64,000 bases of DNA from Bacillota bacterium (GTDB lineage: Bacteria; Bacillota; JAAYKD01), in NCBI GenBank assembly GCA_963666425.2, contig OY762825.2, positions 1,664,001 through 1,728,000 of the forward strand, written 5' to 3'. Positions 31,359 to 51,000 of the stretch are shown piece after piece. Each line of letters starts with the position of its first letter. The first letter of the stretch is position 1. The notes under the pieces were generated by a model. It had not been told where the DNA came from. It searched no databases and saw only the letters and a list, made by a program, of their open reading frames with translations. The translations under genes were made by a program, and so were the position numbers.

Positions 31359-34274
31359 ATGATACGAATCGGGCTGGATGTAGGTTCCACTACGCTAAAA
31401 TGCGTGGTGCTTGAGGAACATGGTGAGATCGTGTATCAGTTATATGAACGGCATTTTTCACAAATCACAGAAAGAGCATCCATTATGTTAAGCGGTATTC
31501 TGCAGCAGTTTCCCTTGGAAATTGTGCAGGGCTTGGCTGTAACCGGTTCGGCAGGGATGGGTTTTGCGGAACAAATGGGGATTCCCTTCATGCAGGAAGT
31601 CTATGCCACCAGGGTCGCTGTGAAGAAGCTGCTGCCAAAAACTGATGTTGTGATTGAATTGGGCGGTGAGGACGCCAAAATCCTCTTTTTATCCGGTGCC
31701 ATGGAAGTTCGCATGAATGGTTCCTGTGCCGGCGGCACGGGTGCTTTTATTGACCAGATGGCCACTTTGCTGGCGATTACCCCGGATGAAATGAATGAAA
31801 TGGCCAAGGAGCAAAAAAAACTCTACAGTATCGCCTCTCGCTGCGGCGTGTTTGCCAAATCGGATATCCAGCCGCTGCTCAACCAGGGAGCGCAAAAATC
31901 GGATGTCTCTGCCAGCATTTTTGCGGCAGTCGTCAATCAAACCATTGCCGGTTTGGCGCAGGGACGTGAGATCAAAGGGAATATCGTCTATTTGGGTGGA
32001 CCGCTGACCTTTTTATCACAGCTGCGTTTTGCCTTCGATCGTTCTCTGGAACTGCAGGGAACCTGCCCGCAGAATTCACTCTACTTTGCAGCGCTCGGCG
32101 CCGCACTCTTGGCCGATGAAACGGTCTACGATCTGTCCGCATTGGTTGAGAAAATTAGAAATTTCACGTCCACCGGCAGTTATAAAAGCTGTCCGCCGCT
32201 TTTTGCCGAGCAGGCAGACTATCAGGCTTTTCGGGAACGGCACCAAATCGGCAAACCCTTTCCACTTTTTGAGCTTGGCGCCGATCGGGGCGCTTATCTT
32301 GGTATCGATGCCGGTTCAACCACGGTCAAGTGTGTTCTGCTGAATACACAGGATGAGGTCATCTTTACCAGTTACCGAGCCAACAGCGGCAATCCGATCC
32401 CGATTGTCAAGGAATTTTTAGAGCAAATTTATCAGAAGTTTCCCGAAATTCAGATCATCGGCGCCGCTTCCACCGGTTACGGCGAAGAAATCATCCAAAA
32501 GGCGTTTCATCTCGATCAGGGTGTGGTGGAGACGATAGCGCATTATCTGGCTGCCAAGCGTTTCGACCCGCTGGTGGATTTTATTATCGATATTGGCGGG
32601 CAGGATATCAAGTGCTTCAAGATAGAAAACGGCGCTATTGGCAATATCTTCTTAAATGAAGCCTGCTCTTCCGGCTGTGGTTCTTTTTTGCAGACTTTTG
32701 CCAGCGTTTTGGGTTATTCCATGTCTGATTTTGCTCAAAAGGGAATTTTTGCCGATCGCCCGGTCGATTTGGGTTCCCGCTGCACCGTATTTATGAATTC
32801 TTCGGTCAAACAGGCGCAAAAGGACGGCGCCGATATTGAGAATATTTCGGCCGGCTTGTCGATCAGTGTTGTCAAAAATGCCCTCTATAAGGTCATCCGC
32901 GCAGCCAGCACCGACGCTTTGGGTACGCATATCGTGGTACAAGGTGGTACTTTCCTCAACGACGCGGTGCTGCGCGCCTTTGAAATGGAAATCGGCCGCC
33001 AGGTAACCAGACCATTGATGTCCGGCTTGATGGGTGCTTTGGGCGCCGCACTCTATGCCAAAGAGCATCAAGCTGAAAAGAGCAGCATTTTAAGTGCGGT
33101 CCAGCTGCTGACGTTTAGTCATTCGGCGCAAGCCATCACCTGCAACGGCTGTTCTAACCACTGCCATCTGACGGTCAATACCTTTGATGACGGCAGACGT
33201 TTTATTGGTGGGAATCGCTGCGAAAAGCCGCTCGCCTTACCGGAAAATCAGAAAAAATACAATCTCTATGATGAAAAAAGACAATGGCTGCAGGTTTATC
33301 AACCCTGTTCTGGTCCGCGTGGCAGCATTGGTATTCCCATGGGCCTGAACATGTATGAGCTTTATTCCTTCTGGTATACCTTTTTTACCGTATTGGGTTT
33401 TGGCGTGAAAACCTCACCGCAGTCCAGCCCCCGGCTCTATCGCAGAGGGCAGCATACCATCCCTTCCGACACGGTTTGCTATCCGGCAAAACTGATGCAC
33501 GGACACGTGGAAGCGCTGGCGGAAGCGGGCGTCGATGCCATTTTTTACCCCTGCATGAGTTATCATTTTGATGAAGAGCTGGGAGATAATCACTATAACT
33601 GTCCGGTGGTGGCTTATTATCCGGAAGTCATCAGCGCCAACGTCAGCTTACCGGCAGGTATGAAACTGATTACAGATTATGTGGGTATTCATCGTCCGGC
33701 GGATTTTCCTAAAAAGATGCAGGCGATTTTACAGCGTGAATTTGGTCCGATCAATTTAGCGGAAGTGGAATACGCAGCCAAAATGGCTTATGAAGAATAT
33801 AGCGCTTACATGCGAAAAATTCGGGATAAAGGCAAAGAATTTTTACAAATTGCCGCCGAAGAAAATCTGCCGGTCATTGTGCTGGCCGGCCGGCCTTACC
33901 ATCTTGATCAGGAAGTCAATCACGGTATTGACAACTTAATCTGCAGCTTTGGGGCGGTGCTGGTCAGTGAGGATGCCGTTTCCGATCAGGTTGAGAAATT
34001 TCCCACGACGGTCTTGAATCAATGGACCTATCATGCCAGACTCTATGCTGCCGCTCGATTTGTAGCCAACAGTAAGAATCCCAAGATCAACTTAGTCCAG
34101 ATGGTTTCTTTCGGCTGCGGCGTGGACGCAATTACCACAGACGAAGTCCGAAAAATCCTGGAAACGGAAGATAAAATCTACACGCAGATCAAAATTGATG
34201 AAATAACCAACCTGGGTGCTGTTAAGGTGCGCTTACGCAGCCTGTTTGCCGCGGTTGGACAGGAAACGAGATGA
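31359..34274 (+). CDS. 2-hydroxyacyl-CoA dehydratase activator (two BadF/BcrAD ATPase domains plus DUF2229-type C-terminus)
   Basis: GLDVGSTTLK / GIDAGSTTVK, MNGSCAGGTG / LNEACSSGCG, SRCGVF / SRCTVF and LAGRPYHLD. Confidence 0.9.
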   Translation: MIRIGLDVGSTTLKCVVLEEHGEIVYQLYERHFSQITERASIMLSGILQQFPLEIVQGLAVTGSAGMGFAEQMGIPFMQEVYATRVAVKKLLPKTDVVIELGGEDAKILFLSGAMEVRMNGSCAGGTGAFIDQMATLLAITPDEMNEMAKEQKKLYSIASRCGVFAKSDIQPLLNQGAQKSDVSASIFAAVVNQTIAGLAQGREIKGNIVYLGGPLTFLSQLRFAFDRSLELQGTCPQNSLYFAALGAALLADETVYDLSALVEKIRNFTSTGSYKSCPPLFAEQADYQAFRERHQIGKPFPLFELGADRGAYLGIDAGSTTVKCVLLNTQDEVIFTSYRANSGNPIPIVKEFLEQIYQKFPEIQIIGAASTGYGEEIIQKAFHLDQGVVETIAHYLAAKRFDPLVDFIIDIGGQDIKCFKIENGAIGNIFLNEACSSGCGSFLQTFASVLGYSMSDFAQKGIFADRPVDLGSRCTVFMNSSVKQAQKDGADIENISAGLSISVVKNALYKVIRAASTDALGTHIVVQGGTFLNDAVLRAFEMEIGRQVTRPLMSGLMGALGAALYAKEHQAEKSSILSAVQLLTFSHSAQAITCNGCSNHCHLTVNTFDDGRRFIGGNRCEKPLALPENQKKYNLYDEKRQWLQVYQPCSGPRGSIGIPMGLNMYELYSFWYTFFTVLGFGVKTSPQSSPRLYRRGQHTIPSDTVCYPAKLMHGHVEALAEAGVDAIFYPCMSYHFDEELGDNHYNCPVVAYYPEVISANVSLPAGMKLITDYVGIHRPADFPKKMQAILQREFGPINLAEVEYAAKMAYEEYSAYMRKIRDKGKEFLQIAAEENLPVIVLAGRPYHLDQEVNHGIDNLICSFGAVLVSEDAVSDQVEKFPTTVLNQWTYHARLYAAARFVANSKNPKINLVQMVSFGCGVDAITTDEVRKILETEDKIYTQIKIDEITNLGAVKVRLRSLFAAVGQETR

Positions 34275-34280
34275 TACAAG

Positions 34281-35525
34281 ATGGCGGATGAGCAAAATCG
34301 TATTGAATTTACCAAAGAAATGAAGAAGACCTATAAGATCCTTTTTCCGGATATGGCAGATATCCACTTCCGCATCTTGCGCAATGTCTTCGTCAGTTAC
34401 GGTTACGATATTGAACTGCTGACCAACACCGACAGCCGCGTGATTGACGAAGGCTTGAAATATATCCATAACGATGCCTGTTACCCGGCGCTCTTAACCA
34501 CGGGTCAGATGATCAGCGCCTTGAAAAGCGGGAAATACGATCTGAACAAGACGGCATTGATGATGTCGCAGACCGGTGGTGGCTGCCGCGCCTCCAATTA
34601 CATCCATCTGCTGCGCAAGGCATTAATCAATGCCGGGATGGGACAGGTGCCGGTGATTTCGGTGAATTTATCGGGTCTGGAAGAAAACAGCGGTTTTAAA
34701 ATCACGCTGCCAATGCTGCGCAAATCCTTGGCTGCGCTTACTTACGGTGACTTGCTGATGCTGCTCAGCAATCAGACCAGACCATATGAAACCGAACCGG
34801 GCTTGAGCGACCAGACGGTAGAGCATTGGGTCAGCTTTGTTTCCGAGCTGTTTGAAAAAGGCAAAGCCACGAGCACGAAGGAAATAAAAACCTACTGCAG
34901 TGAAATGGTTCATGCTTTTGCCGCGATTCAGCAGCGCGTGGTCAAGAAGGTCAAAGTCGGCATCGTGGGTGAGATCTATGTCAAATACTCCGCCTTGGCC
35001 AACAACAACCTGGAAAAATTACTGGCTGAGCAAGGCTGTGAAGTAATGGTGCCCGGTCTGCTGCAGTTCATGCTGTTTAAGGTGGATAACCGGATTGAGG
35101 ATATCAAACTCTATGGCGGCAGCCGGATAAAAAAATCGATTGTCGGATTACTCTATCAATTCCTCAGACAATTCGAAACTTATTTGATTCAGGCGGTGCA
35201 GCAGAGCCGCTTTACCGTACCTGCCAGTTATGAGCACCTCAAACAACTGGCAGCGCCTCTGATCGGCACCGGCTGCAAAATGGGTGAGGGCTGGCTCTTG
35301 ACCAGCGAGATGCTGGAACTGATCGAAAAAGGTTATGAGAATATCGTCTGTGCACAGCCGTTTGGCTGTCTGCCCAATCATATTGTGGGCAAGGGGATGA
35401 TCCGCCAGATCCGGACGCTCTACCCGCAGGCCAACATCGTGCCGATTGATTACGATGCCGGCGCTACCAAGGTTAACCAAGAGAACCGAATCAAACTGAT
35501 GCTGGCGGTAGCCAGGGAGCAGTAG
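34281..35525 (+). CDS. 2-hydroxyacyl-CoA dehydratase-related subunit
   Basis: NDACYP, QTGGGCRASNY, VGIVGEIYVK, GEGWLL and QPFGCLPNHIVGKG; 6 bp downstream of the activator. Confidence 0.85.
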   Translation: MADEQNRIEFTKEMKKTYKILFPDMADIHFRILRNVFVSYGYDIELLTNTDSRVIDEGLKYIHNDACYPALLTTGQMISALKSGKYDLNKTALMMSQTGGGCRASNYIHLLRKALINAGMGQVPVISVNLSGLEENSGFKITLPMLRKSLAALTYGDLLMLLSNQTRPYETEPGLSDQTVEHWVSFVSELFEKGKATSTKEIKTYCSEMVHAFAAIQQRVVKKVKVGIVGEIYVKYSALANNNLEKLLAEQGCEVMVPGLLQFMLFKVDNRIEDIKLYGGSRIKKSIVGLLYQFLRQFETYLIQAVQQSRFTVPASYEHLKQLAAPLIGTGCKMGEGWLLTSEMLELIEKGYENIVCAQPFGCLPNHIVGKGMIRQIRTLYPQANIVPIDYDAGATKVNQENRIKLMLAVAREQ

Positions 35526-35641
35526 GAGTAGGGGGAGAAGGTTGCAGAATAGGAGTAGACGGAGATGACGAAGTTGAGTTAAGATTGATCTCATTTCACA
35601 GCGATTTTTAACAGGAACCGAACCAACGTAGATGAATATAT

Positions 35642-35685
35642 GCTCATAAAGCACGGTGAAATACCAAACTTTATGAGCTTTTTTT
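35642..35685 (+). terminator. Intrinsic terminator after the dehydratase operon
   Basis: GCTCATAAAG/CTTTATGAGC stem followed by T7. Confidence 0.7.
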
Positions 35686-35716
35686 ATCATCCGAAGCATA
35701 ACTGTTTTCTTTGTTT

Positions 35717-35892
35717 GGAAAAATGTGCGAATACTTAGTTGAAAAAGCCGGAAAAATGTGCGAATACTTAGTTGAAAAAGCCGGAAAAATGTGCGAATAC
35801 TTAGTTGAAAAAGCCGGAAAAATGTGCGAATACTTAGTTGAAAAAGCCGGAAAAATGTGCTAATATTTAGTTGAAAAAGCCGGAAAAATGTG
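35717..35892 (+). repeat. 33-bp tandem repeat, 5 full copies plus an 11-bp partial copy
   Basis: Unit GGAAAAATGTGCGAATACTTAGTTGAAAAAGCC at 35717, 35750, 35783 and 35816; variant GGAAAAATGTGCTAATATTTAGTTGAAAAAGCC at 35849; partial at 35882. No spacers. Confidence 0.97.
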
Positions 35893-35899
35893 TTATGCT
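35871..35899 (+). promoter_or_regulatory. Probable promoter of the AAA ATPase, built from the last repeat unit
   Basis: TTGAAA (35871)-17 bp-TATGCT (35894) with TG-n extension. Confidence 0.6.
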
Positions 35900-35931
35900 G
35901 TTGCTGTCCAAAGAAAGGGTGGTGCTTTTTT

Positions 35932-37224
35932 GTGAAACGCAATGCGATTCAGGCTCTCAAGTTATGGAAAGCCAGTAAAGATCGGAAACCAATGGTGTTG
36001 AAAGGCGCACGGCAGGTCGGCAAAACCTGGCTGATGAAGGAATTTGGAAAGAACTATTATGAAAATTACGCCTACTTTAATTTTGACGAGGAAGATGAAT
36101 TGAAATCCATCTTCGAAATGAATAAAAACCCGCAGCGGATCATTGAACTACTCTCCCTCATTGCTGGGTTAAAGATTTTACCCGGCAAGACACTCGTTCT
36201 TTTTGATGAAATCCAGGAATGCCCAGACGCCTTGAATGCACTCAAATACTTTAAAGAGAATGCTAATGAATATCATGTGATCGCGGCTGGAAGTCTACTC
36301 GGAACCTTGCTCTCACAGCCAAAGTCTTATCCGGTCGGTATGGTCAATCTTTTGAATGTCTATCCCCTCACCTTTGATGAGTATTTGGTAGCCTGCGATG
36401 AGTCTTTATTTAGCTATTATGGAAGTATCCAAAAGGAGCTGCAAATTGAAGAGATTTTCCATCATCGGTTATTGGAGGCATATCAAAACTATCTCATCAT
36501 CGGCGGTATGCCGGAATGTGTTGCCTCATGGATCAAATACAAGGATCCTCAGAAAATTTCACGGATACAGCAGGAACTGATTGAAGTTTACGAGAATGAT
36601 TTTTCCAAACACAATGGGCAGGTCAACAGCGTCCGCATTCTGATGGTTTTTCGCAGCATTGCCACGCAACTGGCTAAAACAAATGAGAAATTTATGTATG
36701 GTGCCGTTCGAGATGGCGGCAGAGCAAGAGATTTTGAGGAAGCGATCGAGTGGCTGGTTTCAGCCGGAATGTTGAACCGACTCTACAATGTTGCAAAAAC
36801 CGAGCACCCACTTTCGGCTTTTGACAGACTCGATTGCTTCAAATTGTTTGTCTTCGATACCGGACTTCTCAAGCACATGGCTGGTATTGATAACAGCGCA
36901 ATTTTGCTTAAGTCTAACTATCAGTTCAAAGGTCAGCTGACGGAGAACTATGTTTTACAGCAGCTTCGCGGTCAGTTTGAAGTTGAGCCGAGATACTACT
37001 CAGATAAAACAGGCGAGATCGATTTCGTGCTGCAAAACGGAACAGAAATTATCCCGGTGGAAGTAAAAAGCGGTGAAGATAAAACCGCTCCTTCATTTAA
37101 GCGCTATATTGCCGAATACCAACCCAAGTGCGCCATACGCTTTTCTAAGCGTGGTTATTTAAAAAACGGTATGATTACAAATATTCCGCTTTATCTCGTC
37201 AATAAAACAAAAGAACTTATCTGA
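35932..37224 (+). CDS. AAA_14/DUF4143-type ATPase with C-terminal PD-(D/E)xK-like motif
   Basis: GARQVGKT, LFDEIQ, AAGSLLG, IGGMPE, FDTGLL and EIDFV...IPVEVKSG; GTG 35932 behind AAAGGGTGGTG. Confidence 0.9.
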   Translation: MKRNAIQALKLWKASKDRKPMVLKGARQVGKTWLMKEFGKNYYENYAYFNFDEEDELKSIFEMNKNPQRIIELLSLIAGLKILPGKTLVLFDEIQECPDALNALKYFKENANEYHVIAAGSLLGTLLSQPKSYPVGMVNLLNVYPLTFDEYLVACDESLFSYYGSIQKELQIEEIFHHRLLEAYQNYLIIGGMPECVASWIKYKDPQKISRIQQELIEVYENDFSKHNGQVNSVRILMVFRSIATQLAKTNEKFMYGAVRDGGRARDFEEAIEWLVSAGMLNRLYNVAKTEHPLSAFDRLDCFKLFVFDTGLLKHMAGIDNSAILLKSNYQFKGQLTENYVLQQLRGQFEVEPRYYSDKTGEIDFVLQNGTEIIPVEVKSGEDKTAPSFKRYIAEYQPKCAIRFSKRGYLKNGMITNIPLYLVNKTKELI

Positions 37225-37327
37225 CAGAGTCAAAGCTGGAATAAAATAGAATCTGTTACAGTTCCTATTTCGTGTTCTAGTATATATTCCTAGCTTTTCT
37301 CGTGCTTAGAATCTCATTGATAGCAGC

Positions 37328-37696
37328 GTGAAAAAATGCAATATGCAATCACTTTTGGCAGAAGATAATGCATTTTTACCCATCATAAAAAAGGCAGAGT
37401 TGTTTTGCGGTGTCAGCATCCAATCGGGAGGATACGGAATCAGCTGGGGCGAAAATCTGAGTATTGCTGATCACATTTTGTATGACTGCGGTGTAGACGT
37501 GCCGTTGTCTTTGGATGATTTCCGGCAATTTGTAGCAAATCGCGTTGTCAATACTGCCGAAGCCGCCAAATTGCTGCAATGCTCCCGACAAAACATCAAC
37601 GATCTGATCCGACGCGGCAAGCTCCAGCCGCTGAAGGCTATGGCAAAGAACAAACTATTTTTGATGAGTGAAATCATGCAGCGAAATTGGAAATAG
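37328..37696 (+). pseudogene. Probably 5'-truncated DUF2442-like plus HTH_17 (excisionase-like HTH) protein
   Basis: GGYGISWGENLSI followed by VNTAEAAKLLQCSRQNINDLIRRGKL; begins mid-domain, with no RBS before the GTG. Confidence 0.55.
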
Positions 37697-37724
37697 CGAG
37701 ACAGTTGAAAGTGAGGTTTTACCA

Positions 37725-38531
37725 ATGCAAGACAAACTGCTGGCAACCACAAGAGGATCGGTAGCCTATTGGATTAACCGCCATGAGAATCCCAAGGCGA
37801 AGTGTCTTGTTTTTACGCACGGGCTGACGGCTGACCACTCCATGTTCGAAAAACAGCTTGCCTATTTTGAATTGTCGTATACGGTTATTACCTGGGATGT
37901 TCCCCTGCATGGACAATCCCGCCCTTATACGAATTTTTCTTACGAAAACTGTGCGGAGGATTTGTTGGGGATTTTGAAGCAGGAAGCAATCTCCAAGGTC
38001 ATCTTGGTTGGGATGTCAATGGGGGGTTATCCCAGCCAGGAATTTGCTTTCCATTATCCTGAAATGGTGGAAGGCTTTGTCGCTCTGGATACCACGCCTT
38101 TTGGCATTGGTTATTATTCAAAATCCGATCTCTGGTGGCTCAGACAGGTAGCTCCCCTGGCAAGGCTCTTCCCCGAAAGTGTTTTACGGAATAGTATGGC
38201 GAAATCGGTTGCCAAGACAAAATACGCCTATGATAAGATGGTGGAAATGCTCAAACCCTTAACCAAAACACAAATTATCGAGCAAATGGATATTGCCTAT
38301 GGGGTTTTCACCAAGGAAAATAAGAATGTCAATTTCCTGTTCCCGGTGTTGATTTTATTGGGCGAATTTGATACGACCGGAAAAGTCAAACAATATTGTC
38401 AGGAATGGTCCAAAAAAACAGGTTACCCGCTGCACATCATCAAGAATGCCGCACATTTTTCCAATGGCGACAATCCGGAGCAGGTCAATGCTGAAATACA
38501 AGGATTTATTAAAACATCACTCGGTGACTGA
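37725..38531 (+). CDS. Alpha/beta fold hydrolase
   Basis: FTHGL, WDVPLHG, GMSMG nucleophile elbow, GEFD and AAHFSN; ATG 37725 behind GAGG. Confidence 0.9.
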   Translation: MQDKLLATTRGSVAYWINRHENPKAKCLVFTHGLTADHSMFEKQLAYFELSYTVITWDVPLHGQSRPYTNFSYENCAEDLLGILKQEAISKVILVGMSMGGYPSQEFAFHYPEMVEGFVALDTTPFGIGYYSKSDLWWLRQVAPLARLFPESVLRNSMAKSVAKTKYAYDKMVEMLKPLTKTQIIEQMDIAYGVFTKENKNVNFLFPVLILLGEFDTTGKVKQYCQEWSKKTGYPLHIIKNAAHFSNGDNPEQVNAEIQGFIKTSLGD

Positions 38532-38625
38532 GGTGGCAAAGAAGCAAAAGCGGTGAAGGCAGCTCTGCGCGGTTTGAAAGCGCGCAATAGGAATTTTTAG
38601 TGCAAGAAAAAGAGGAGTGGATTGG

Positions 38626-39120
38626 ATGAAAACCCTGAATCAACAGATAGCCGATTATACCGAATTGCTGCGACAGGGAGAATTGCAGATTGCGTATCGC
38701 AGCATCCTCAATTACATGGGCAAATTGCGCAGTGATTTTGCTGCGCTGCACCCGGAATATGAGATCAGCGGCAGCATCTATCAGGGCTATCTGGACATGA
38801 CTTATTTTTCGGTAATACCTGCCGCTCTGAAAGCGAAAGGGCTGAAAATTGCGGTTGTTTATCTGCACGAGAAGGGTTCTTTTGAAGTGTGGCTTTCCGC
38901 CAGGAACAGAGCGACGCTCAGAAAATACAAGCCAACAGGCGACAGCAAGCTTTGGCACGGGTTCTCTGTTTTCCATGATCCGGAGAATGGAGATGCCGCC
39001 TTCGAATCTACGCTGACGTCTGAGCCGGATTTTGATGAGCAGAATTCACTGACGCAGCTCATCGTGAGCGGGACGGAAAAATTCATCTCTGCTGTCACAA
39101 CGAACCTTTTGATGGAATGA
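38626..39120 (+). CDS. Conserved hypothetical protein (resembles DUF7000 family)
   Basis: GELQIAYRSIL...GSIYQGYLDMTYFS...FEVWLSARN; GAGGAG RBS. Family label from memory, not from a search. Confidence 0.6.
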   Translation: MKTLNQQIADYTELLRQGELQIAYRSILNYMGKLRSDFAALHPEYEISGSIYQGYLDMTYFSVIPAALKAKGLKIAVVYLHEKGSFEVWLSARNRATLRKYKPTGDSKLWHGFSVFHDPENGDAAFESTLTSEPDFDEQNSLTQLIVSGTEKFISAVTTNLLME

Positions 39121-39145
39121 GGCTTGCCGAGAGATTGACAAACGC

Positions 39146-39197
39146 AAAAAAACAGCATCATAAATCGACAGCCAAGCCACTGCCGATTTATGATGCT
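39146..39197 (-). terminator. Terminator between convergent genes
   Basis: AGCATCATAAATCG/CGATTTATGATGCT stem with an A7 tract on the left. Confidence 0.7.
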
Positions 39198-39212
39198 ATA
39201 GTATGGAGAATT

Positions 39213-40049
39213 TTACTGGTTGATTGAAATTGTCTTTACTGTAAATCCATGGTATCCTTCGTCAAAGATTTTCTTTAATGCTGTATTGCCTCCGGTTTCC
39301 CATTGTTCGGCGAGATAGAGCATACCGCTCATACAAGCGTATTTTTCATAATACTGACCGCAAAACGCCTCGTATAAATACTTTTGCTGAATTTCCGGAG
39401 TTGATTCGGCAAGAGCTGCACTCATTTTATGATTACTTCGTTCTTTTATTTTTTCCAAGTCAGTCGTATGCCAATCAATTGTATGGATTTCTTTGGCTTT
39501 ATAAGATACCAAATGTGCAAATGCTTCATGAAACGTATTTGCATCGAAACGCGTAAGATAATTTTTGCTTTCAGTGTCATCATCGATATTCGGAACAGAA
39601 CATCCTATCAAAATATGGCATAGTTCATGGGTTAGAAGATTTTGCACGATTTCCGTAATGTCACGCTGCCCAACGTATTGTGCCCAGCACAGCATGTCAA
39701 AAATGACATGTTGTTTTCCGGTGGCATCTCGTTCTACAATCGCATCGTACGGTTGCGGCAAGCCGACAATCAAATCGACTGTTACATCAGCCAGAATTGC
39801 AGGCCAGCTGGGAAACAACGTATTCCAAATAAGTAGATTCGATGGTATAAATTCGGCTGCTGTTTTTTCGATTGCTTTACAAGCAATTTCCACTTTTCTT
39901 GTATGATCTTTGTCATAAATAGGTTCTTGGAAAATATTGCTTCCTTGGCTTCTGGCAATCGATGAATTCGAGAAATACCACTCTTGAGAATAATCACTTA
40001 CTTTTCCACCGGATAAATAGGCGCTGACTATTTTGTTGTTTATTCTCAT
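39213..40049 (-). CDS. Putative zinc-dependent protease (HExxH)
   Basis: LTHELCH motif with a downstream FHEAFAH third-ligand segment; visibly AT-richer than the core genes. Confidence 0.55.
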   Translation of the reverse strand: MRINNKIVSAYLSGGKVSDYSQEWYFSNSSIARSQGSNIFQEPIYDKDHTRKVEIACKAIEKTAAEFIPSNLLIWNTLFPSWPAILADVTVDLIVGLPQPYDAIVERDATGKQHVIFDMLCWAQYVGQRDITEIVQNLLTHELCHILIGCSVPNIDDDTESKNYLTRFDANTFHEAFAHLVSYKAKEIHTIDWHTTDLEKIKERSNHKMSAALAESTPEIQQKYLYEAFCGQYYEKYACMSGMLYLAEQWETGGNTALKKIFDEGYHGFTVKTISINQ

Positions 40050-40310
40050 CGATAGACTACCTCCACTAAAATTGAAATAATCATATCACATTACCAGCCT
40101 GCATTCAATAAAGATGTTATAAATCGTTGCTAATAGTTAATTTTTACCCTTATGCTGAATTCATTGCCGAAACAGAAAAAGTACATTGCATATTTGTGAG
40201 TAATATTACAAATATCTGCCGCATTTTTTCTGTTGCAGCGAATGGTCTGCAGATTTGACAATCAGACTGGTGAATCATTACAGAGGCGCATCAATAAGGA
40301 GAAACACGAA

Positions 40311-40790
40311 ATGTCTAAACTCGAAATTACCAACATGGTGATGGTCCAAGACAAACTAAGCGGCCAGGTTATCGTTCAGGAGAGAATCAAAAACTGGTGC
40401 GGCTGTGCTTTTCCCGGCGGTCACGTCGAAAACGGAGAAAGTATTTACGACAGCGCTGTGCGTGAAATCAAAGAAGAAACCGGGCTAACTATCCAAAACC
40501 TCAAATCTTGTGGTTTGATCTACTGGTTCAATAATAAAACCGAGGATCGCTATTTTGTTCATTTATATCGTACGACCGATTATACCGGTGAACTGATCGA
40601 GAGGAGCGAGGAAGGCAGCGTATTCTGGATGAGTCTTGACGAACTTGTTGCAAGGAAGCTTGCTCCCAATTTCAAAGAGTATCTGCCGATTTTTCTGGAA
40701 AACAAGTTTTCGGAAGCGTATTGCTCCTGGAATGACGATATGCAGGCTGATCTGACAAAGGATAATCCCTGGGGGATCATCTACAGGTAG
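40311..40790 (+). CDS. Nudix hydrolase (MutT/MutX-like)
   Basis: Complete Nudix box GGHVENGESIYDSAVREIKEETG; ATG 40311 behind AAGGAG. Confidence 0.92.
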   Translation: MSKLEITNMVMVQDKLSGQVIVQERIKNWCGCAFPGGHVENGESIYDSAVREIKEETGLTIQNLKSCGLIYWFNNKTEDRYFVHLYRTTDYTGELIERSEEGSVFWMSLDELVARKLAPNFKEYLPIFLENKFSEAYCSWNDDMQADLTKDNPWGIIYR

Positions 40791-43243: not shown

Positions 43244-43295
43244 AAATATTCGTCGTATATTTGCAAGTGATTCAACAAATATTCGTTGCATTTTT
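43244..43295 (+). repeat. Imperfect direct repeat with 33-bp period upstream of the second AAA ATPase
   Basis: AAATATTCGTCGTATATTT (43244) and AAATATTCGTTGCATTTTT (43277): 16/19 identical, first 10 perfect. Confidence 0.65.
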
Positions 43296-43343
43296 TGTTG
43301 CTGCGTGCCATGATAGAATCAGATCAATTACGGAGGTGTATTT

Positions 43344-44648
43344 ATGTATCGGTACGCATTGGATGAACTCTATCGATGGAAAGAAAGCAAATATCGCAAA
43401 CCGCTCGTTCTTGAAGGAGCGAGGTAGGTGGGTAAGACTTGGCTCATGAAAGAATTCGGAGCAAAGGCTTATACCGATACCATTTACATCAACTTTGATT
43501 CGAACAGCCAGATGGCCGATCTTTTCTCAGCGGATCTCAAAGCAGAACGGCTTATGCTCGGCCTGGAACTTTTTGCGGGCAGAAAAATCAATCCCGGCAA
43601 TACACTGATCATTTTTGATGAAGTCCAAGAGGTTCCCAAGGCGCTAACCAGTTTAAAATACTTCTACGAAGACGCTCCGCAATATCATATTGTCTGTGCA
43701 GGCTCACTTTTAGGAATTGCCTTGCATGGCGGTACCTCTTTCCCGGTTGGGAAAGTAGATTTTTTAAAATTATATCCATTATCCTTTAAAGAGTTTTTGA
43801 TTGCGACCGGCAATAAGCGTTTTGTCGAGTTGCTTGAAAAACAAGATTATCCAATGATTACAAGCTTCAGGCAGGTATTCATCGATGCGCTCAAGCAGTA
43901 TTATTTTATCGGTGGAATGCCGGAGGCTGTGCTGCATTTTAGCGAGAACAAAGATTTCAATGAGGTTCGCAGGATTCAAATGCGAATTTTGGCAGCTTAC
44001 GAGCAGGATTTTTCCAAGCATGCTCCGAATGAAATCGTGCCAAAAATCCGCATGCTTTGGAACAGTATCCCCTCACAACTAGCAAAAGAAAACAAGAAAT
44101 TTATTTATGGGCTTGTTCGTGACGGTGCTCGGGCAAAGGAATACGAAACTGCCATGCTGTGGTTGATAGATTGTGGACTTATTCACAAAGTCTGCCGTGT
44201 CAATACCCCTCATCTGCCCTTAAAAGCTTATGAGGATTTAAAAGCATTTAAACTGTTTGTGGTCGATGTCGGGTTGCTCTCCTGTATGACTGGGCTGCAT
44301 CAACGAATCCTGCTTGACGGGAATGACCTTTTCGTGGAATTCAAAGAGGCATTGAGCGAGCAATATGTGCTGCAGCAGCTTGTTGCGATGCTGAATATTT
44401 CCATCTATTATTATACGAATGATAGAAATTCCTCTGAGATTGATTTTATGATTGACGATGGTGAACACATCATACCGATTGAAGTAAAAGCAGAAGTCAA
44501 CCTCATGGCAAAGAGCCTCAAAACATATAAAGAGAAATTCAACCCAGAGCTTTCCGTGAGGACTTCAATGGCGGATTATAAAAAGCGAGAGTGGCTGGTT
44601 AATTTGCCACTCTATGCTGTCTTTGAGGTTGGAAAGCTCTATGACTGA
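43344..44648 (+). pseudogene. AAA_14/DUF4143-type ATPase interrupted by an in-frame TAG in Walker A
   Basis: GGAGG RBS and ATG 43344 give MYRYALDELYRWKESKYRKPLVLEGAR-TAG(43425-43427)-VGKTWLMKEFG; the rest is intact (IFDEVQ, EIDFM...IPIEVK). Confidence 0.88.
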
Positions 44649-44682
44649 GGTGTCTGAGACGGACGATTAAGGAGAAACACGC

Positions 44683-45162
44683 ACGCCAAAACTCGAAATT
44701 ACCAACATGGATATGGTGCAAGATAAGACAACAGGTAAAGTAAATCGTTCAGGATAGGATCAAAAACTGGTGCGTTTGGCTTCCCCCGGTGGTCACGCTG
44801 AAAACGGAGAAAGTATTTACGACAGCGCTGTGCGTGAAATCAAAGAAGAAACCGGGTTAACCATCCAAAATTTTAAATCCTGTGGTTTGATCTACTGGTT
44901 CAACAATAAAACCGAGGATCGCTATTTTGTTCATTTATATCGTACGACCGATTATATTGGTGAACTGATCGAGGTCACCGAGGAAGGCAGAGTGTTCTGG
45001 TTGAGTCTCGATGATCTTGTTAAGAGGAAGCTTGCTCCTAATTTCAAAGAGTATCTGACGATTATTCTGGAAAACAAGAATTCGGAAGCGTATTGTTCCT
45101 GGAATGACGATATGCTGGTTAATCTGATAGAGGACAATCCCTGGGGGATTATTTACAGATAA
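44683..45162 (+). pseudogene. Decayed duplicate of the Nudix gene at 40311
   Basis: Same AAGGAGAAACACG leader, but the start is ACG, with a +1 and a -1 frameshift and a TAG near the 5' end; the 3' two thirds are nearly identical to copy 1. Confidence 0.88.
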
Positions 45163-45266: not shown

Positions 45267-45340
45267 CCGGATCCGAATGTTTTACCAACAGACCAACAGC
45301 GCAGCGATTGATTACGATGCCGGTACCTTCAAAATCAATC
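45267..45340 (+). pseudogene. Remnant of the 3' end of the dehydratase gene
   Basis: Encodes RIRMFYQQTNSAAIDYDAGTFKIN versus QIRTLYPQANIVPIDYDAGATKVN at 35406-35477; 53/74 nt identical by manual ungapped alignment. Confidence 0.75.
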
Positions 45341-48035: not shown

Positions 48036-51000
48036 TTATCCCACTACCAATTGATTCGTCTTCTTGAGATACTTTGCCGGGATTGGACGCTCCAGCTGCC
48101 AGGTGATATTCATTGGCCGGCTGCCATTGTGCTGCACGTAATTGGCAAGGCCGAGCAAGCTATAGGGTGCCGTGCCGGCGAGATCTGTCTTGGATTCGCG
48201 AACGAACAGCAACACTTTACTGCCGCGCTCGCGGTGATGGATATAACGCTGACCGGTGGGAGAACTCTCTGAGGTCGTGCTCTGGCTTTGCCAATGAAAT
48301 AAACTTTCATTAATAGAATAATCGTTGTACATCGTCGAGGGAGAATAATGCTTATCTGATTTGTTCAGGGTTACGAGCAGTATATCTATTTGTTTTTCCG
48401 GCAGCCATTTCACTCCTTCACGAATCGTTTTGGGCAGCATAAAATCCAGGGCAACCAACAGCTGATCACGGGTATACACGCAGTGCAGATCCAGTGGGCA
48501 GGCAAAACCCAAATTTAAAGGTTCATCGAGAAAATCGATGCGGTCGTAGTTATACTGCAGCAGTTTCATCAGCTCCGCAAGCATCACAGGGCTATCGGCA
48601 AGTGAGTAAAGATTCTTCAGCACCTCAGCATTGTCCCAATCTTCCACCGCTTCTTGCCAGATGGTAATGTAGAACATTTGCAGCATGCGTTGTTCCCGCT
48701 CCGGCAGTTTGGCAAAATTCACGTCATTCAACCGCGGCAATAGGTCTAGCAGGAAGGTAATCCACCTGCGGGAATCAATGGATACAATCCGGCTGAACGC
48801 TTTTGTCAGCGTCTCCTCGATCGCCTCATCAAAGTTTTCTTTGGCTCCGGCCAGAACGCAAAGGCGGGCGAAGCTGTATTTTACGTAGATTGTGCGGCTG
48901 TCCAGATGGTAATAACCCAGAAAATTTGCTAAATTCAGAGGCAGACCGCTGTCCTCAACAAAATTGGTAAGTTTGCTGATCAACCCCAACTTTGTACTGA
49001 AGGAGCTCTTTATATTTTCTAAAATATAGGCTACGGCTATTTTCTCCAACTGGATGTAACAGCCTTTCGGTGCGGAGAGAAAACCATTTTTCAACTCGTA
49101 CTGCACGCTGTGGTTTGAGTTTGCCAGCAATGCTGCAAATTTCTCTTCAAAGTTATACTTTTTGTTTGCCTGACCGATGAAATCCAGCACGGTCAGGCAT
49201 TCTTTATTTTCTGTAAGGCGCAGGCCGCGGCCAAGCTGCTGCAAAAAGATGGTCAGCGACTCGGTTGGCCGCAAGAACAAGACGGTATTGACTTCCGGGA
49301 TATCTACGCCTTCGTTATAGATGTCCACTACAAAGATGAAACGGATCTCCCCGGCTACCAAGCGTTTTTTCGCCGTATTACGTTCTTCATCTGCAGACTC
49401 ACTCACCAGTGAAATGGACGGCATGCTGTTTTTATTGAAGAACTCCGCCATGAATTTGGCGTGCTCTACCGACACACAGAAGCCCAAGCCTTTCAGGTCA
49501 TGCATGTCTGTTACATACCGTTCCAGAGATTGCAGGATGTTGCCCGCACGGCGTTCCGCCACGAGGCGATTGAGGGAATAAAGGTTGCTCAGTTCAGACT
49601 TATCGTAACCACCGCGCATCCAGCGCAGTTCACTCAGGTCTACGGTGTCTGTTACACCAAAATATTGGAAGGGACACAAGAGTTTACGGTCAATGGCTTC
49701 CGGCAAACGAATTTCCGCCGCAATACGGCCATCGAAATAGTCCAGAATACTCTTACCGTCCATGCGCTCCGGAGTTGCAGTCAAGCCTAATAATATTTTC
49801 GGTTGAAAGTGGCTCAGCAACTTCTGATAGGTTGGTGCAGCGGCGTGGTGGAACTCATCAACAATGATGAAGTCGTAGTAATCCGCAGGCAATTTTTCGC
49901 AGAATTCCTGAGAATTCAGCGTCTGGATGGAGATGAACAGGTGATCGAGACCCTCCGGCTGATAGCTGCCGACAAACAATTCACCGAAATTCGGATCCTT
50001 CAGCACGCCTTGGAAGGTATCCCGGCTCTGGATTAAAATTTCTTCCCGGTGAGCTACAAAGAGCAGCCGATTCGCTTGACCGATGTGATCACGATAGAAA
50101 CGGCGATAATCAAAAGCGGAGATCACTGTTTTGCCCGTGCCCATCGCTGACACCACGAGATTGCGATAAAGATGGCGCACTTCGCGTTCCGCACGGAGTT
50201 TATCCAGAATTTCCTGCTGAAAAGGATAAGGACGAATGTCAAAAAAGAAACGTCGACTTTCTTCAGAACCGAAGCGTTCGGCCTTCAATGCTCCGAGCAG
50301 GCGCTCGCGTTCTTCTTCTTTATATAATTCAAACTCGGTGGAATGCCAATAGTTCTCGAAGGTGGCCGTAATCTTCTCAAGGGTTTCCGGTAAGTCTTTG
50401 GCCGTTAGTTTGATGTTCCACTCCAGGCCACTGGAAATAGCGCTGTTGGAAAGGTTCGATGAACCCACATAAGCTGTGCTGAAGCCGGTGTTACGGTAAA
50501 ACACATAGGTTTTCGCATGCAGTCGGGTCCGTTTGGTGTCATAGGAGATCTTGATCTCCGTATGAGGCAGCTTGCTCAGCTCCTCTACGGCTTTCATGTC
50601 GGTTGCGCCCATGTAAGAAGTAGTGATGATGCGGAGCTCACCGCTACTTCGAGTAAATTCGCGCAGTTCTTCTATAATCAACCGCAGACCACTCCACTTG
50701 ATGAAAGATACCAACAGATCAATCCGATCGGCGGAAAGGATCTCTTTTTTCAATTCGGAGAACATTTGCGGTTCATGCACCGCGCCGGTGAACAGGCTGC
50801 TTTGAGCAATGGATGTTGTTGGCCGATTCAGATCACTTGCTGTTTTGCCCAGTATCAGACGGGGATCATTCTCACCCAATAGCGCAAAAAGCTGCTCTGC
50901 ACGTCCGTCCACAGAGAAAACGGCAAAGTCAGCTTCTTGGGTTTCCTGTTCAATCAGTTTGACAATTCGGTTAGAAAGAGCAACCTGTGAGGCTAGATTT

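Follow-up and report, generated by a model that had tools for sequence, protein, structure and literature searches.

A phased box array that travels with a PDC-S01 ATPase-nuclease gene, amplified in one genome and a probable autoregulatory operator

Why should a 33-bp sequence stand repeated head to tail directly in front of a gene for a potentially toxic ATPase-nuclease? The locus lies in a 64-kb stretch of contig OY762825.2 (GCA_963666425.2), hereafter the window, which is chromosomal and belongs to a 3.2-Mb host genome that we label G000. The array occupies positions 35717..35892 of the forward strand and has 5.3 units, four of them identical, the fifth with two substitutions, and the last a partial unit. 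The gene follows on the same strand at 35932..37224 and encodes a 430-aa protein with AAA_14 and DUF4143 domains, which PADLOC classes as PDC-S01. The original prediction for this locus had read the array as iteron-like or as an operator of the ATPase behind it, and had described it as a pile of promoter modules in which slippage or unit conversion could tune the nuclease or make it phase-variable. We find that the array is an amplified copy of a conserved element, and we consider it probable that the ATPase binds its boxes in order to repress its own promoter, so that the array would be an amplified autoregulatory operator.

The array is unusually regular. Tandem Repeats Finder (TRF) gives it a period of 33, 5.3 copies, 98% matches, no indels, and a score of 338, which makes it far the strongest of the 17 TRF rows for the window. 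With up to three mismatches allowed, the 33-bp unit has five matches in G000, every one of them inside the array, and the reversed pattern used as a control has none. The head-to-tail units that had been predicted are therefore borne out, as the single array of this kind in the genome. Each unit contains a 10-nt box: box 1, GAAAAATGTG, lies at 35718..35727 on the forward strand, and boxes 2 to 6 start at 35751, 35784, 35817, 35850, and 35883 on the same strand, each 10 nt long and 33 bp from the last. The partial final unit is box 6.

A tandem repeat in an assembled contig may be an artefact of assembly, a doubt that the original prediction itself had raised. Logan contigs from two sequencing runs (X1 and X3) end at 35746 and 35836 and do not bridge the array. 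Both runs also contain short contigs made only of the unit (50 and 43 nt), and these exceed the depth of the flanks by factors of 5.9 and 4.8 in X1 and of 2.1 and 1.4 in X3, with 3.75 and 3.0 expected from the assembled array, contig depth being a weak measure. Since the unit-only contigs are deeper than the flanks in two runs, the repeat is real. The number of units may differ between the two samples, as far as so weak a measure as contig k-mer depth can indicate. Contigs from two landfill runs (X4 and X5) reach the gene side of the array only. A metagenome scan for the junction between units returned three stretches, two identical sludge loci with the usual three boxes and one single chance match, and thus no second amplified copy of the array. 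A scan of 34000-38000 against Rfam, with E up to 1, gave no matches, so the region holds no known RNA, and megablast of 35500-37300 against plasmids likewise gave none. Two open reading frames (ORFs) cross the array, at 35711-35863 on the forward strand and 35148-35942 on the reverse. We rejected the array as coding sequence because relatives use 32-bp spacing as often as 33-bp spacing and do not conserve the spacers.

To which relatives, then, does the element belong, and what do they share? We examined the best 80 of 300 loci with a related ATPase from a collection holding one genome per species, with proteins 70-87% identical to that of the window. (Individual related or viral loci are given L numbers below.) The hosts are metagenome-assembled genomes of Lachnospiraceae, Oscillospiraceae, other Clostridia, Bacteroides, Prevotella, Sphaerochaeta, Spirochaetaceae, and Erysipelotrichales, and their phyla are Firmicutes, Bacteroidota, and Spirochaetota. 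When window positions 35000-39500 were compared with the 80 loci by blastn, homology was limited to the interval from about 35702, at the first box, to 37232, at the stop codon, and none of the 80 shared a flank or a neighbour gene. Because homology stops at these two points, the conserved unit is a 1.5-kb module of array, promoter, and ORF. Because no neighbour is shared and the hosts span three phyla, the ATPase is the only co-inherited candidate for the protein that binds the boxes. A small HTH_17 gene at 37328-37696 was also considered as the binder and was rejected because relatives share nothing past about 37232.

Within the module, it is the boxes that are kept. Across the 527,273 bases of the 80 loci, the exact word GAAAAAYGTG was counted 174 times on the gene strand, with 170 of these occurrences falling within -200..-1 of the start codon, and once on the opposite strand. 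Of 103 distances between successive boxes, 97 measure 32 or 33 bp, so that the relatives, too, have direct repeats phased on one face of the DNA beside their own gene, as iterons are. In a position table, AAAAA-Y-GTG is kept at 96-99% and the flanking positions are weak, while the spacer DNA between boxes is unrelated among relatives. Counted as a phased chain with up to two mismatches allowed, the boxes number three at 55 loci, two at 12, four at 11, five at one (L083), and six in the window only; one further locus, L024, is truncated by a contig edge. TRF alone detects an array of 31-34-bp period upstream of the ATPase gene at 17 of the 80 loci and at four other places in them, three of which precede another AAA_14 gene. 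The association also holds in reverse: a two-box pattern is present in 3 of 400 other genomes of the phylum (the reversed control had one match), and in all three it lies directly upstream of an ATPase 73-75% identical to ours. These results support the predicted iteron-like or operator role of the array with respect to the downstream gene.

Some of the 80 loci have features of their own. L035 (3001-4559), which has the highest identity (87% in its best segment), has a stop after 146 codons and a match 270 bp longer than the others, and its boxes read GGAATAATGTG. At L046, L048, L051, L052, L063, L069, L074, and L075 the module stands divergently beside a gene starting MILVIAEKPSVA, which by eye resembles the topoisomerase III of conjugative elements.

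The next question is how the boxes stand with respect to the promoter. TTGAAA starts five times in the array, at 35739, 35772, 35805, 35838, and 35871, and 17 bp after each there is a hexamer preceded by TGn: GAATAC in the first three cases, TAATAT (35861-35866) in the fourth, and TATGCT (35894-35899) in the fifth. The layout that the original prediction described is present in full, both in the sequence and in a promoter consensus scan, which finds six sigma-70-like sites against 1.2 ± 1.3 in shuffles. The proximal promoter spans 35871..35899 on the forward strand, from its -35 element TTGAAA (35871-35876) across a 17-bp spacer to its -10 element TATGCT. Box 6 lies inside this spacer, and the final TG of the box is the TG of the extended -10. 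A possible second promoter spans 35838..35866 on the same strand (-35 TTGAAA at 35838-35843, TGn, -10 TAATAT), and it is possible that the two substitutions of unit 5 made this one extra putative promoter. GAATAC agrees with TATAAT at only two of six positions. Thus, a plausible -10 is found in two of the five window units, and not every unit has a usable pair of -35 and -10.

The relatives make the same point more generally. Their last box runs directly into TTATACT-like -10 elements: TAnnnT follows one nucleotide after the last box at 58 of the 80 loci, and TTGnnn stands 16-18 nt upstream of that hexamer at 55 of the 80, whereas among the 164 non-last boxes TAnnnT follows just 6. This difference indicates that the conserved design is one promoter with one to three upstream boxes. 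The last box overlaps the core promoter of its own gene, as expected of an operator, and the spacers are not conserved. Of the proposed promoter stack, then, the two units nearest the gene stand, and the three with GAATAC do not. The amplified unit consists of a spacer with its -35 plus a box, and for this reason each unit junction imitates a promoter.

The protein probably starts at GTG 35932 and not at GTG 35890, because the former aligns with the ATG/TTG/GTG-AAA starts of relatives; a ribosome-binding site, AAAGGGTGG, was read by eye at 35914-35922. Pfam assigns AAA_14 (PF13173) to residues 32-166 with E 1.1e-31 and DUF4143 (PF13635) to residues 235-395 with E 6e-33, which confirms the predicted AAA/DUF4143 ATPase-nuclease, and PADLOC model PDLC04786 (PDC-S01) matches end to end (residues 1-428, E 9.8e-169). 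The only other Pfam match is a sub-threshold ATPase_2, and there is none to a Rep family. In an alignment of 63 sequences, the Walker A/B residues G30, K31, D92, and E93 are invariant, as are D364 and E377 of the PD-(D/E)xK site, with K379 present at 90% or more. Weak Cas4 and YraN matches cover residues 326-393. No solved homologue was found by sequence, the best match being Cas4 4r5q with E 0.079 over 38 residues.

The AlphaFold2 model is of high quality (predicted local distance difference test, pLDDT, 90.5; predicted template modelling score 0.91) and gives a layout of NTPase (about 1-170), helical (171-232), winged-helix (about 233-318), and PD-(D/E)xK (about 319-430) parts. Over residues 1-318, the model can be superposed on two AAA+/winged-helix ATPases from archaea, 2qen (Z 16.4, 270 residues, 4.6 Å) and 2fna (Z 14.9), and on the NB-ARC modules of CED-4 and plant nucleotide-binding leucine-rich-repeat receptors (Z 14-15). 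Foldseek matches include Orc1/Cdc6-DNA complexes (2qby, E 7e-6) and a chain of MalT, 8bob. The protein thus models as an NTPase of the ORC/STAND type (origin recognition complex; signal transduction ATPases with numerous domains) with a helical and a winged-helix part, followed by a PD-(D/E)xK nuclease. In the 80-member subfamily, the winged-helix region 233-318 has a mean column identity of 0.955, and the other three parts have 0.863, 0.884, and 0.866. Folded alone, this region reached a pLDDT of 61, too poor for a fold search, and the model was not used. A clade of six proteins whose boxes are altered to GAAAAAGTGT has only eight clade-specific substitutions. These include R266K, which lies where the putative recognition helix begins; the 74 remaining proteins all have R266. 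As a single point, the pairing of R266K with an altered box is suggestive of box reading by this region.

Related genes extend the pattern, with other words and other spacings. G000 has 10 DUF4143 matches, and a second genome, G030, has 22. Triplets with 33-bp spacing precede other subfamilies as TGCTTTTTCGTGCAA, TTATTCGTCGTTAA, and CCAAAAGGTGCAATTAA, and also as GTCCCTCATAAAAGTGT; they occur at L080, L043, L042, L008 of G030, and L148, a replicon of Segatella copri DSM 18205, where the third box abuts a Bacteroidetes-type TAnnTTTG. A GPKWCGKT-type subfamily has arrays of 23-bp period before its gene in G000, G030, and L126. Its G000 paralogue, in the region of G000:C1:1431458 outside the window, has four CGCCAACTAT boxes in a strict 23-bp period before the promoter, and the G030 arrays consist of three TTTAGCGGAT and three GAGCCAAA. 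Fusobacterium L147 has two palindromic boxes, TGTGA-N6-TCACA, 32 bp apart, a Bacteroides pMMCAT plasmid has two boxes 66 bp apart, and further subfamilies have plain palindromes over the promoter, as judged by eye. The window itself contains a second PDC-S01 paralogue, 44% identical to the first (43244..44648, forward strand). Its ORF, 43344-44648, is broken by a TAG in Walker A (GARxVGKT), and a pair of AAATATTCG boxes 33 bp apart (43244 and 43277) lies upstream of its ATG at 43344. Box cores are common to proteins that are 70-75% identical, such as the window protein and L008 or the MERLIL group and Fusobacterium L147, and are not common to more distant ones.

The anatomy of the element is plain: the boxes are conserved, phased, set at the promoter, and inherited together with the gene, and the domain architecture of the protein is defined. 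From this anatomy, we favour the reading in which the array is an autoregulatory operator, since the ATPase is the sole co-inherited gene, paralogues have unrelated boxes, the boxes and not the spacers are under selection, and the proximal box lies in the core promoter. Protomers would bind the boxes head to tail through the winged-helix region, on one face of the DNA and every three helical turns; in the 23-bp subfamily, they would sit every two turns. Occupation of the proximal box would repress the ATPase's own promoter, and a mobile, potentially toxic nuclease would thereby gain a portable set-point of expression that is independent of the host.

Several points weigh against this proposal. 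The pairing of boxes with protein subfamilies might reflect no more than joint descent of the gene and its promoter region. Boxes 1 and 2 would fall near -84 and -51, positions that activators also use, so that the boxes could serve activation as well as repression. The putative recognition helix, ARDFEEAIEWLVS, is acidic and amphipathic by our reading of the sequence, which is atypical for DNA readers, and the winged helix of STAND NTPases is a regulatory domain and not a DNA-binding one. A strict test for three-fold repeats upstream of diverse DUF4143 genes was positive in only 1 of 28 cases, and direct arrays are therefore specific to certain subfamilies. Boxes of the ATTCGT type (PAR2, L043b, L125) were tried as a covarying class and rejected, as the nearest protein to that of PAR2, L121, has a different box; these boxes are not tracked by protein similarity. 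Finally, viral contigs hold phased boxes without the ATPase, so another binder may exist.

Why the window has six boxes is a separate question. A FastTree phylogeny of the 80 proteins implies no fewer than 17 changes in box number, and no fewer than 10 if only shifts between more than three boxes and three or fewer are counted; the rows nearest to the window have two or three. As the nearest relatives have so few and the number is labile, six boxes are a derived and recent state. Unequal exchange or slippage would have recently multiplied the 33-bp unit, a box with a -35, to give them. It is possible, if less probable than not in our judgement, that the extra three units are nothing but a selectively neutral product of such slippage or exchange acting on a functional element: four units are 100% identical, the closest loci have two or three boxes, and similar small expansions recur, with two identical units at L085 and five boxes at L083. 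Against neutrality, both substitutions of unit 5 shift GAATAC toward TATAAT, giving TAATAT, which may indicate selection. We find it very improbable that the array works, along the lines first proposed, as a promoter stack, with frequent switching of copy number that phase-varies a toxic nuclease. Every unit does have TTGAAA and TG in 17-bp phase with a hexamer, two of the hexamers are plausible, box number is labile in evolution, and the depth of the unit contigs departs from the expected 3.0-3.75 in both runs (4.8-5.9 times in X1, 1.4-2.1 times in X3). Contig depth, however, is a poor measure of copy number, three of the five hexamers are GAATAC, and the rarity of TAnnnT after non-last boxes in relatives means that stacked promoters are not the conserved function. 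Nor does a change in copy number shift the -35/-10 spacing or a reading frame, as the units are whole 33-bp units and each keeps its 17-bp spacer.

Other explanations concern what reads the boxes, and here the viral contigs matter most. In IMG/VR, a two-box pattern with a gap of 22-23 nt occurs in 101 stretches, whereas control gaps give 4, 8, and 2, a 12-50-fold difference. We analysed 80 of the 101 (L155-L234; for instance L172, L173, L190, L192, and L159). The ATPase is directly downstream in 2 of the 80, and 77 have room for the gene and yet no match. The arrays reduce to 63 distinct ones, 49 of which share boxes only, and 28 of these 49 lie outside any ORF of at least 70 aa. As 41 of the 80 arrays lie inside some ORF of that length, some must be peptide repeats. 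Five viral records were searched whole; two of them carry a completeness rating of 100%, and terminal repeats are present in one. DUF4143 was found in none of the five, and 13 of their 14 boxes belong to one phased array per record. The 71 proteins neighbouring viral arrays fall into 57 clusters, with no common family by clustering. Another protein may use the viral arrays as its sites; alternatively, they may be decoys or may be targeted by the ATPase.

In one of these other explanations, the ATPase would bind the boxes as a site of nucleation, loading, or storage, or the array would be a self-copy of an invader's target, in an iteron-like or ORB-like arrangement (after the origin recognition boxes, ORBs, of archaea) with repression secondary; phage or plasmid DNA with phased boxes would then draw the protein away from its promoter and bring in the nuclease. 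We regard this as unlikely, though the least so among the other explanations that concern the reader of the boxes. In fold, the protein is similar to initiator-like AAA+/winged-helix proteins such as Orc1/Cdc6, and these bind repeated boxes beside their own genes; IMG/VR is enriched in this box at this pitch relative to every control gap; and both the distinct arrays that share boxes only and the five records without DUF4143 fit a target. A nuclease that targeted its boxes would, however, endanger its own promoter, and phages would be expected to shed such sites. The neighbours of the viral arrays are heterogeneous, about half of the arrays lie within ORFs, and neither an AT-rich unwinding element nor a role in replication is evident at the window locus. 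In a more specific version, which we think somewhat less likely still, the PDC-S01 protein reads phased arrays, the array at its own promoter is a self-copy of a site found once per genome in many phages that lack the gene, and phage DNA replicating after infection would titrate the protein, induce the gene, and collect the ATP-driven oligomer with its nuclease on the invader; the phage arrays might instead be decoys. Were this true, amplified arrays would tune the threshold of a titration-type sensor, and one of the commonest defence candidates would gain both a trigger and a regulatory circuit. About equally improbable is that a different protein reads the boxes, such as a host factor or a regulator of phages or mobile elements with a 33-bp pitch, with the ATPase gene as one target. 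Phased boxes without the ATPase in viral contigs point in this direction, as do the TGTG(A)-type cores, which look like half-sites of CRP/FNR-type regulators, for instance in the TGTGA-N6-TCACA of Fusobacterium L147. The hosts, however, span three phyla, and unrelated boxes coexist within G000 (six GAAAAATGTG, two AAATATTCG, four CGCCAACTAT) and, in several kinds, within G030. One host factor is insufficient where paralogues of one genome carry unrelated boxes. G000 also holds no regulon, since it has 17 single boxes against about 14 expected from composition, and no second cluster. Least credible of all is that the boxes have no protein reader and that A5 tracts, phased three helical turns apart, bend the DNA or stimulate transcription in the manner of an UP element as a portable strong promoter. 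All boxes do carry an A5 tract, and at 32-33 bp their spacing amounts to roughly three turns of the helix; but YGTG is as invariant as the A tract (97-99%), sister subfamilies keep the architecture without an A tract (TTTAGCGGAT, CGCCAACTAT, TTATTCGTCGTTAA), and other subfamilies use palindromes.

Returning to the autoregulatory operator, several well-studied systems help to place it. In plasmids such as P1, F, pSC101, and RK2, iterons are direct phased repeats beside the gene of a winged-helix Rep protein, which binds them and represses its own promoter, and the number of repeats varies and matters. The window array is likewise direct, phased, variable in number, and beside the gene of a winged-helix protein. 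It differs in its pitch, 32-33 bp (23 bp in the sister subfamily) against about 22 bp in iterons, in its chromosomal locus, and in its protein, an AAA+/STAND-like NTPase with a nuclease domain and no Rep family by Pfam. Archaeal Orc1/Cdc6, which has its origin recognition boxes, and DnaA, which has DnaA boxes in its own promoter, are also AAA+ NTPases with a DNA-reading domain (a predicted one here) and same-sense boxes beside their own genes, and they oligomerise on DNA in an ATP-dependent manner. Beyond the NTPase core, however, the window protein is closer to 2qen, 2fna, and NB-ARC modules than to Orc1/Cdc6, and unlike both systems it has a C-terminal PD-(D/E)xK nuclease and no evident origin. 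MalT and IniR are STAND NTPases that multimerise on asymmetric box arrays at promoters; MalT is among the fold matches of the window protein (8bob), and the NTPase domain of IniR has been likened to SSO1545 (PMC5760070). Both are activators with a separate C-terminal LuxR-type helix-turn-helix domain, whereas the window protein has a nuclease in that place.

Restriction-modification systems, through their controller (C) proteins, and toxin-antitoxin operons that regulate themselves use a separate small regulator protein. RptR is described as a repressor of defence islands (PMC12255303). With all of these, the window module would have in common a mobile, potentially self-harmful nuclease gene that brings its own operator and host-independent expression; here, however, a single polypeptide would serve as both regulator and effector, with phased direct repeats as the operator. 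In kind, the window array is a variant of the logic of autoregulatory operators and iterons.

What does this add to the picture of PDC-S01? Published accounts, in the portions available, present PDC-S01/COG1373 as a single-gene system that is very abundant and horizontally spread (PMC12988326, PMC13356809, PMC10782964): it is reported to rank fourth in abundance among the defence candidates of prokaryotes and, in rumen genomes, to be found more often than any other single locus (PMC12988326, PMC13356809), and COG1373 is among the commonly transferred gut COGs (PMC10782964 Table 2). One table row gives the function of the family as 'Unknown' (PMC3424549), and its defence role is described as untested (10.1101/2024.01.29.577857; PMC12988326). 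The window protein is recognisably of this kind, by its match to PDLC04786, both Pfam domains, and its Walker A/B and D...ExK residues. The available portions of these accounts treat the protein only, with no mention of a phased box array or of autoregulation, and a literature search on autoregulated defence nucleases gave nothing on the AAA_14 + DUF4143 family. A phased, lineage-specific box array that travels with PDC-S01 thus appears to be undescribed in those sources.

The box array is therefore a cheap and concrete handle on a system whose working and control are undescribed. Our reading predicts that the PDC-S01 protein recognises specific DNA sequences at a pitch of 33 bp (or 23 bp) and sets its own level, and that box number is an evolvable dial. 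Culturable cases include Segatella copri DSM 18205, with three boxes at 33-bp spacing, and the pMMCAT plasmid family of Bacteroides. Phased boxes in phage genomes could link this regulation to sensing.

The surroundings of the module deserve a brief description. Upstream, a gene of a CoA-activase-like operon (34281-35525) ends before a hairpin with a T-run at 35635..35685 on the forward strand, whose 17-nt arms (35635-35651 and 35669-35685) are 82% complementary. An inverted-repeat search detected this hairpin, and a terminator scan did not list it. Judged from its sequence, it is a likely terminator that would shield the module from upstream transcription. In the leader, at 35902-35924, a terminator-like hairpin with a T-run overlaps the ribosome-binding site; with one found against 0.7 expected, it may be due to chance.

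G001, a genome of the same genus, shares box 1 and the DNA to its left with the window; synteny ends there, with a single GGAAAAACGTG in G001, and the two then diverge. Similarity resumes at the final 72 codons of the second paralogue, which are all that G001 retains of that gene, and at window position 48049. As synteny ends at box 1, the array stands at the edge of a variable stretch of 9-12 kb, running from 35728 to about 48049 in the window. The genes of this stretch are the two ATPase modules, the small HTH_17 gene, an alpha/beta hydrolase, a DUF7000 gene, two genes of the PF00144 serine-hydrolase family, and a TetR regulator. A NUDIX gene there has a 496-bp internal duplication, with copies at 40295-40789 and 44668-45161 that are 87% identical. 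Near the far side, 57 bp at 45267-45323 are 79% identical to 35405-35461, in the 3' part of a DUF2229 gene about 9.9 kb away, and may be a relic of rearrangement.

The alpha/beta-hydrolase ORF contains, at 38450..38464 on the reverse strand and 2720 nt from the array, an inverted copy of box 1 with its flanks that is perfect over 15 nt (TTGGAAAAATGTGCG). The chance of such an inverted pair within 3 kb is, as a rough estimate, about 0.004. The copy is not conserved, as the 527 kb of relatives' loci hold the one reverse-strand box noted above, and among 40 relatives of the hydrolase region none was informative. A shorter inverted match, 13 nt long, pairs 35712-35724 with 36599-36611 inside the ATPase ORF.

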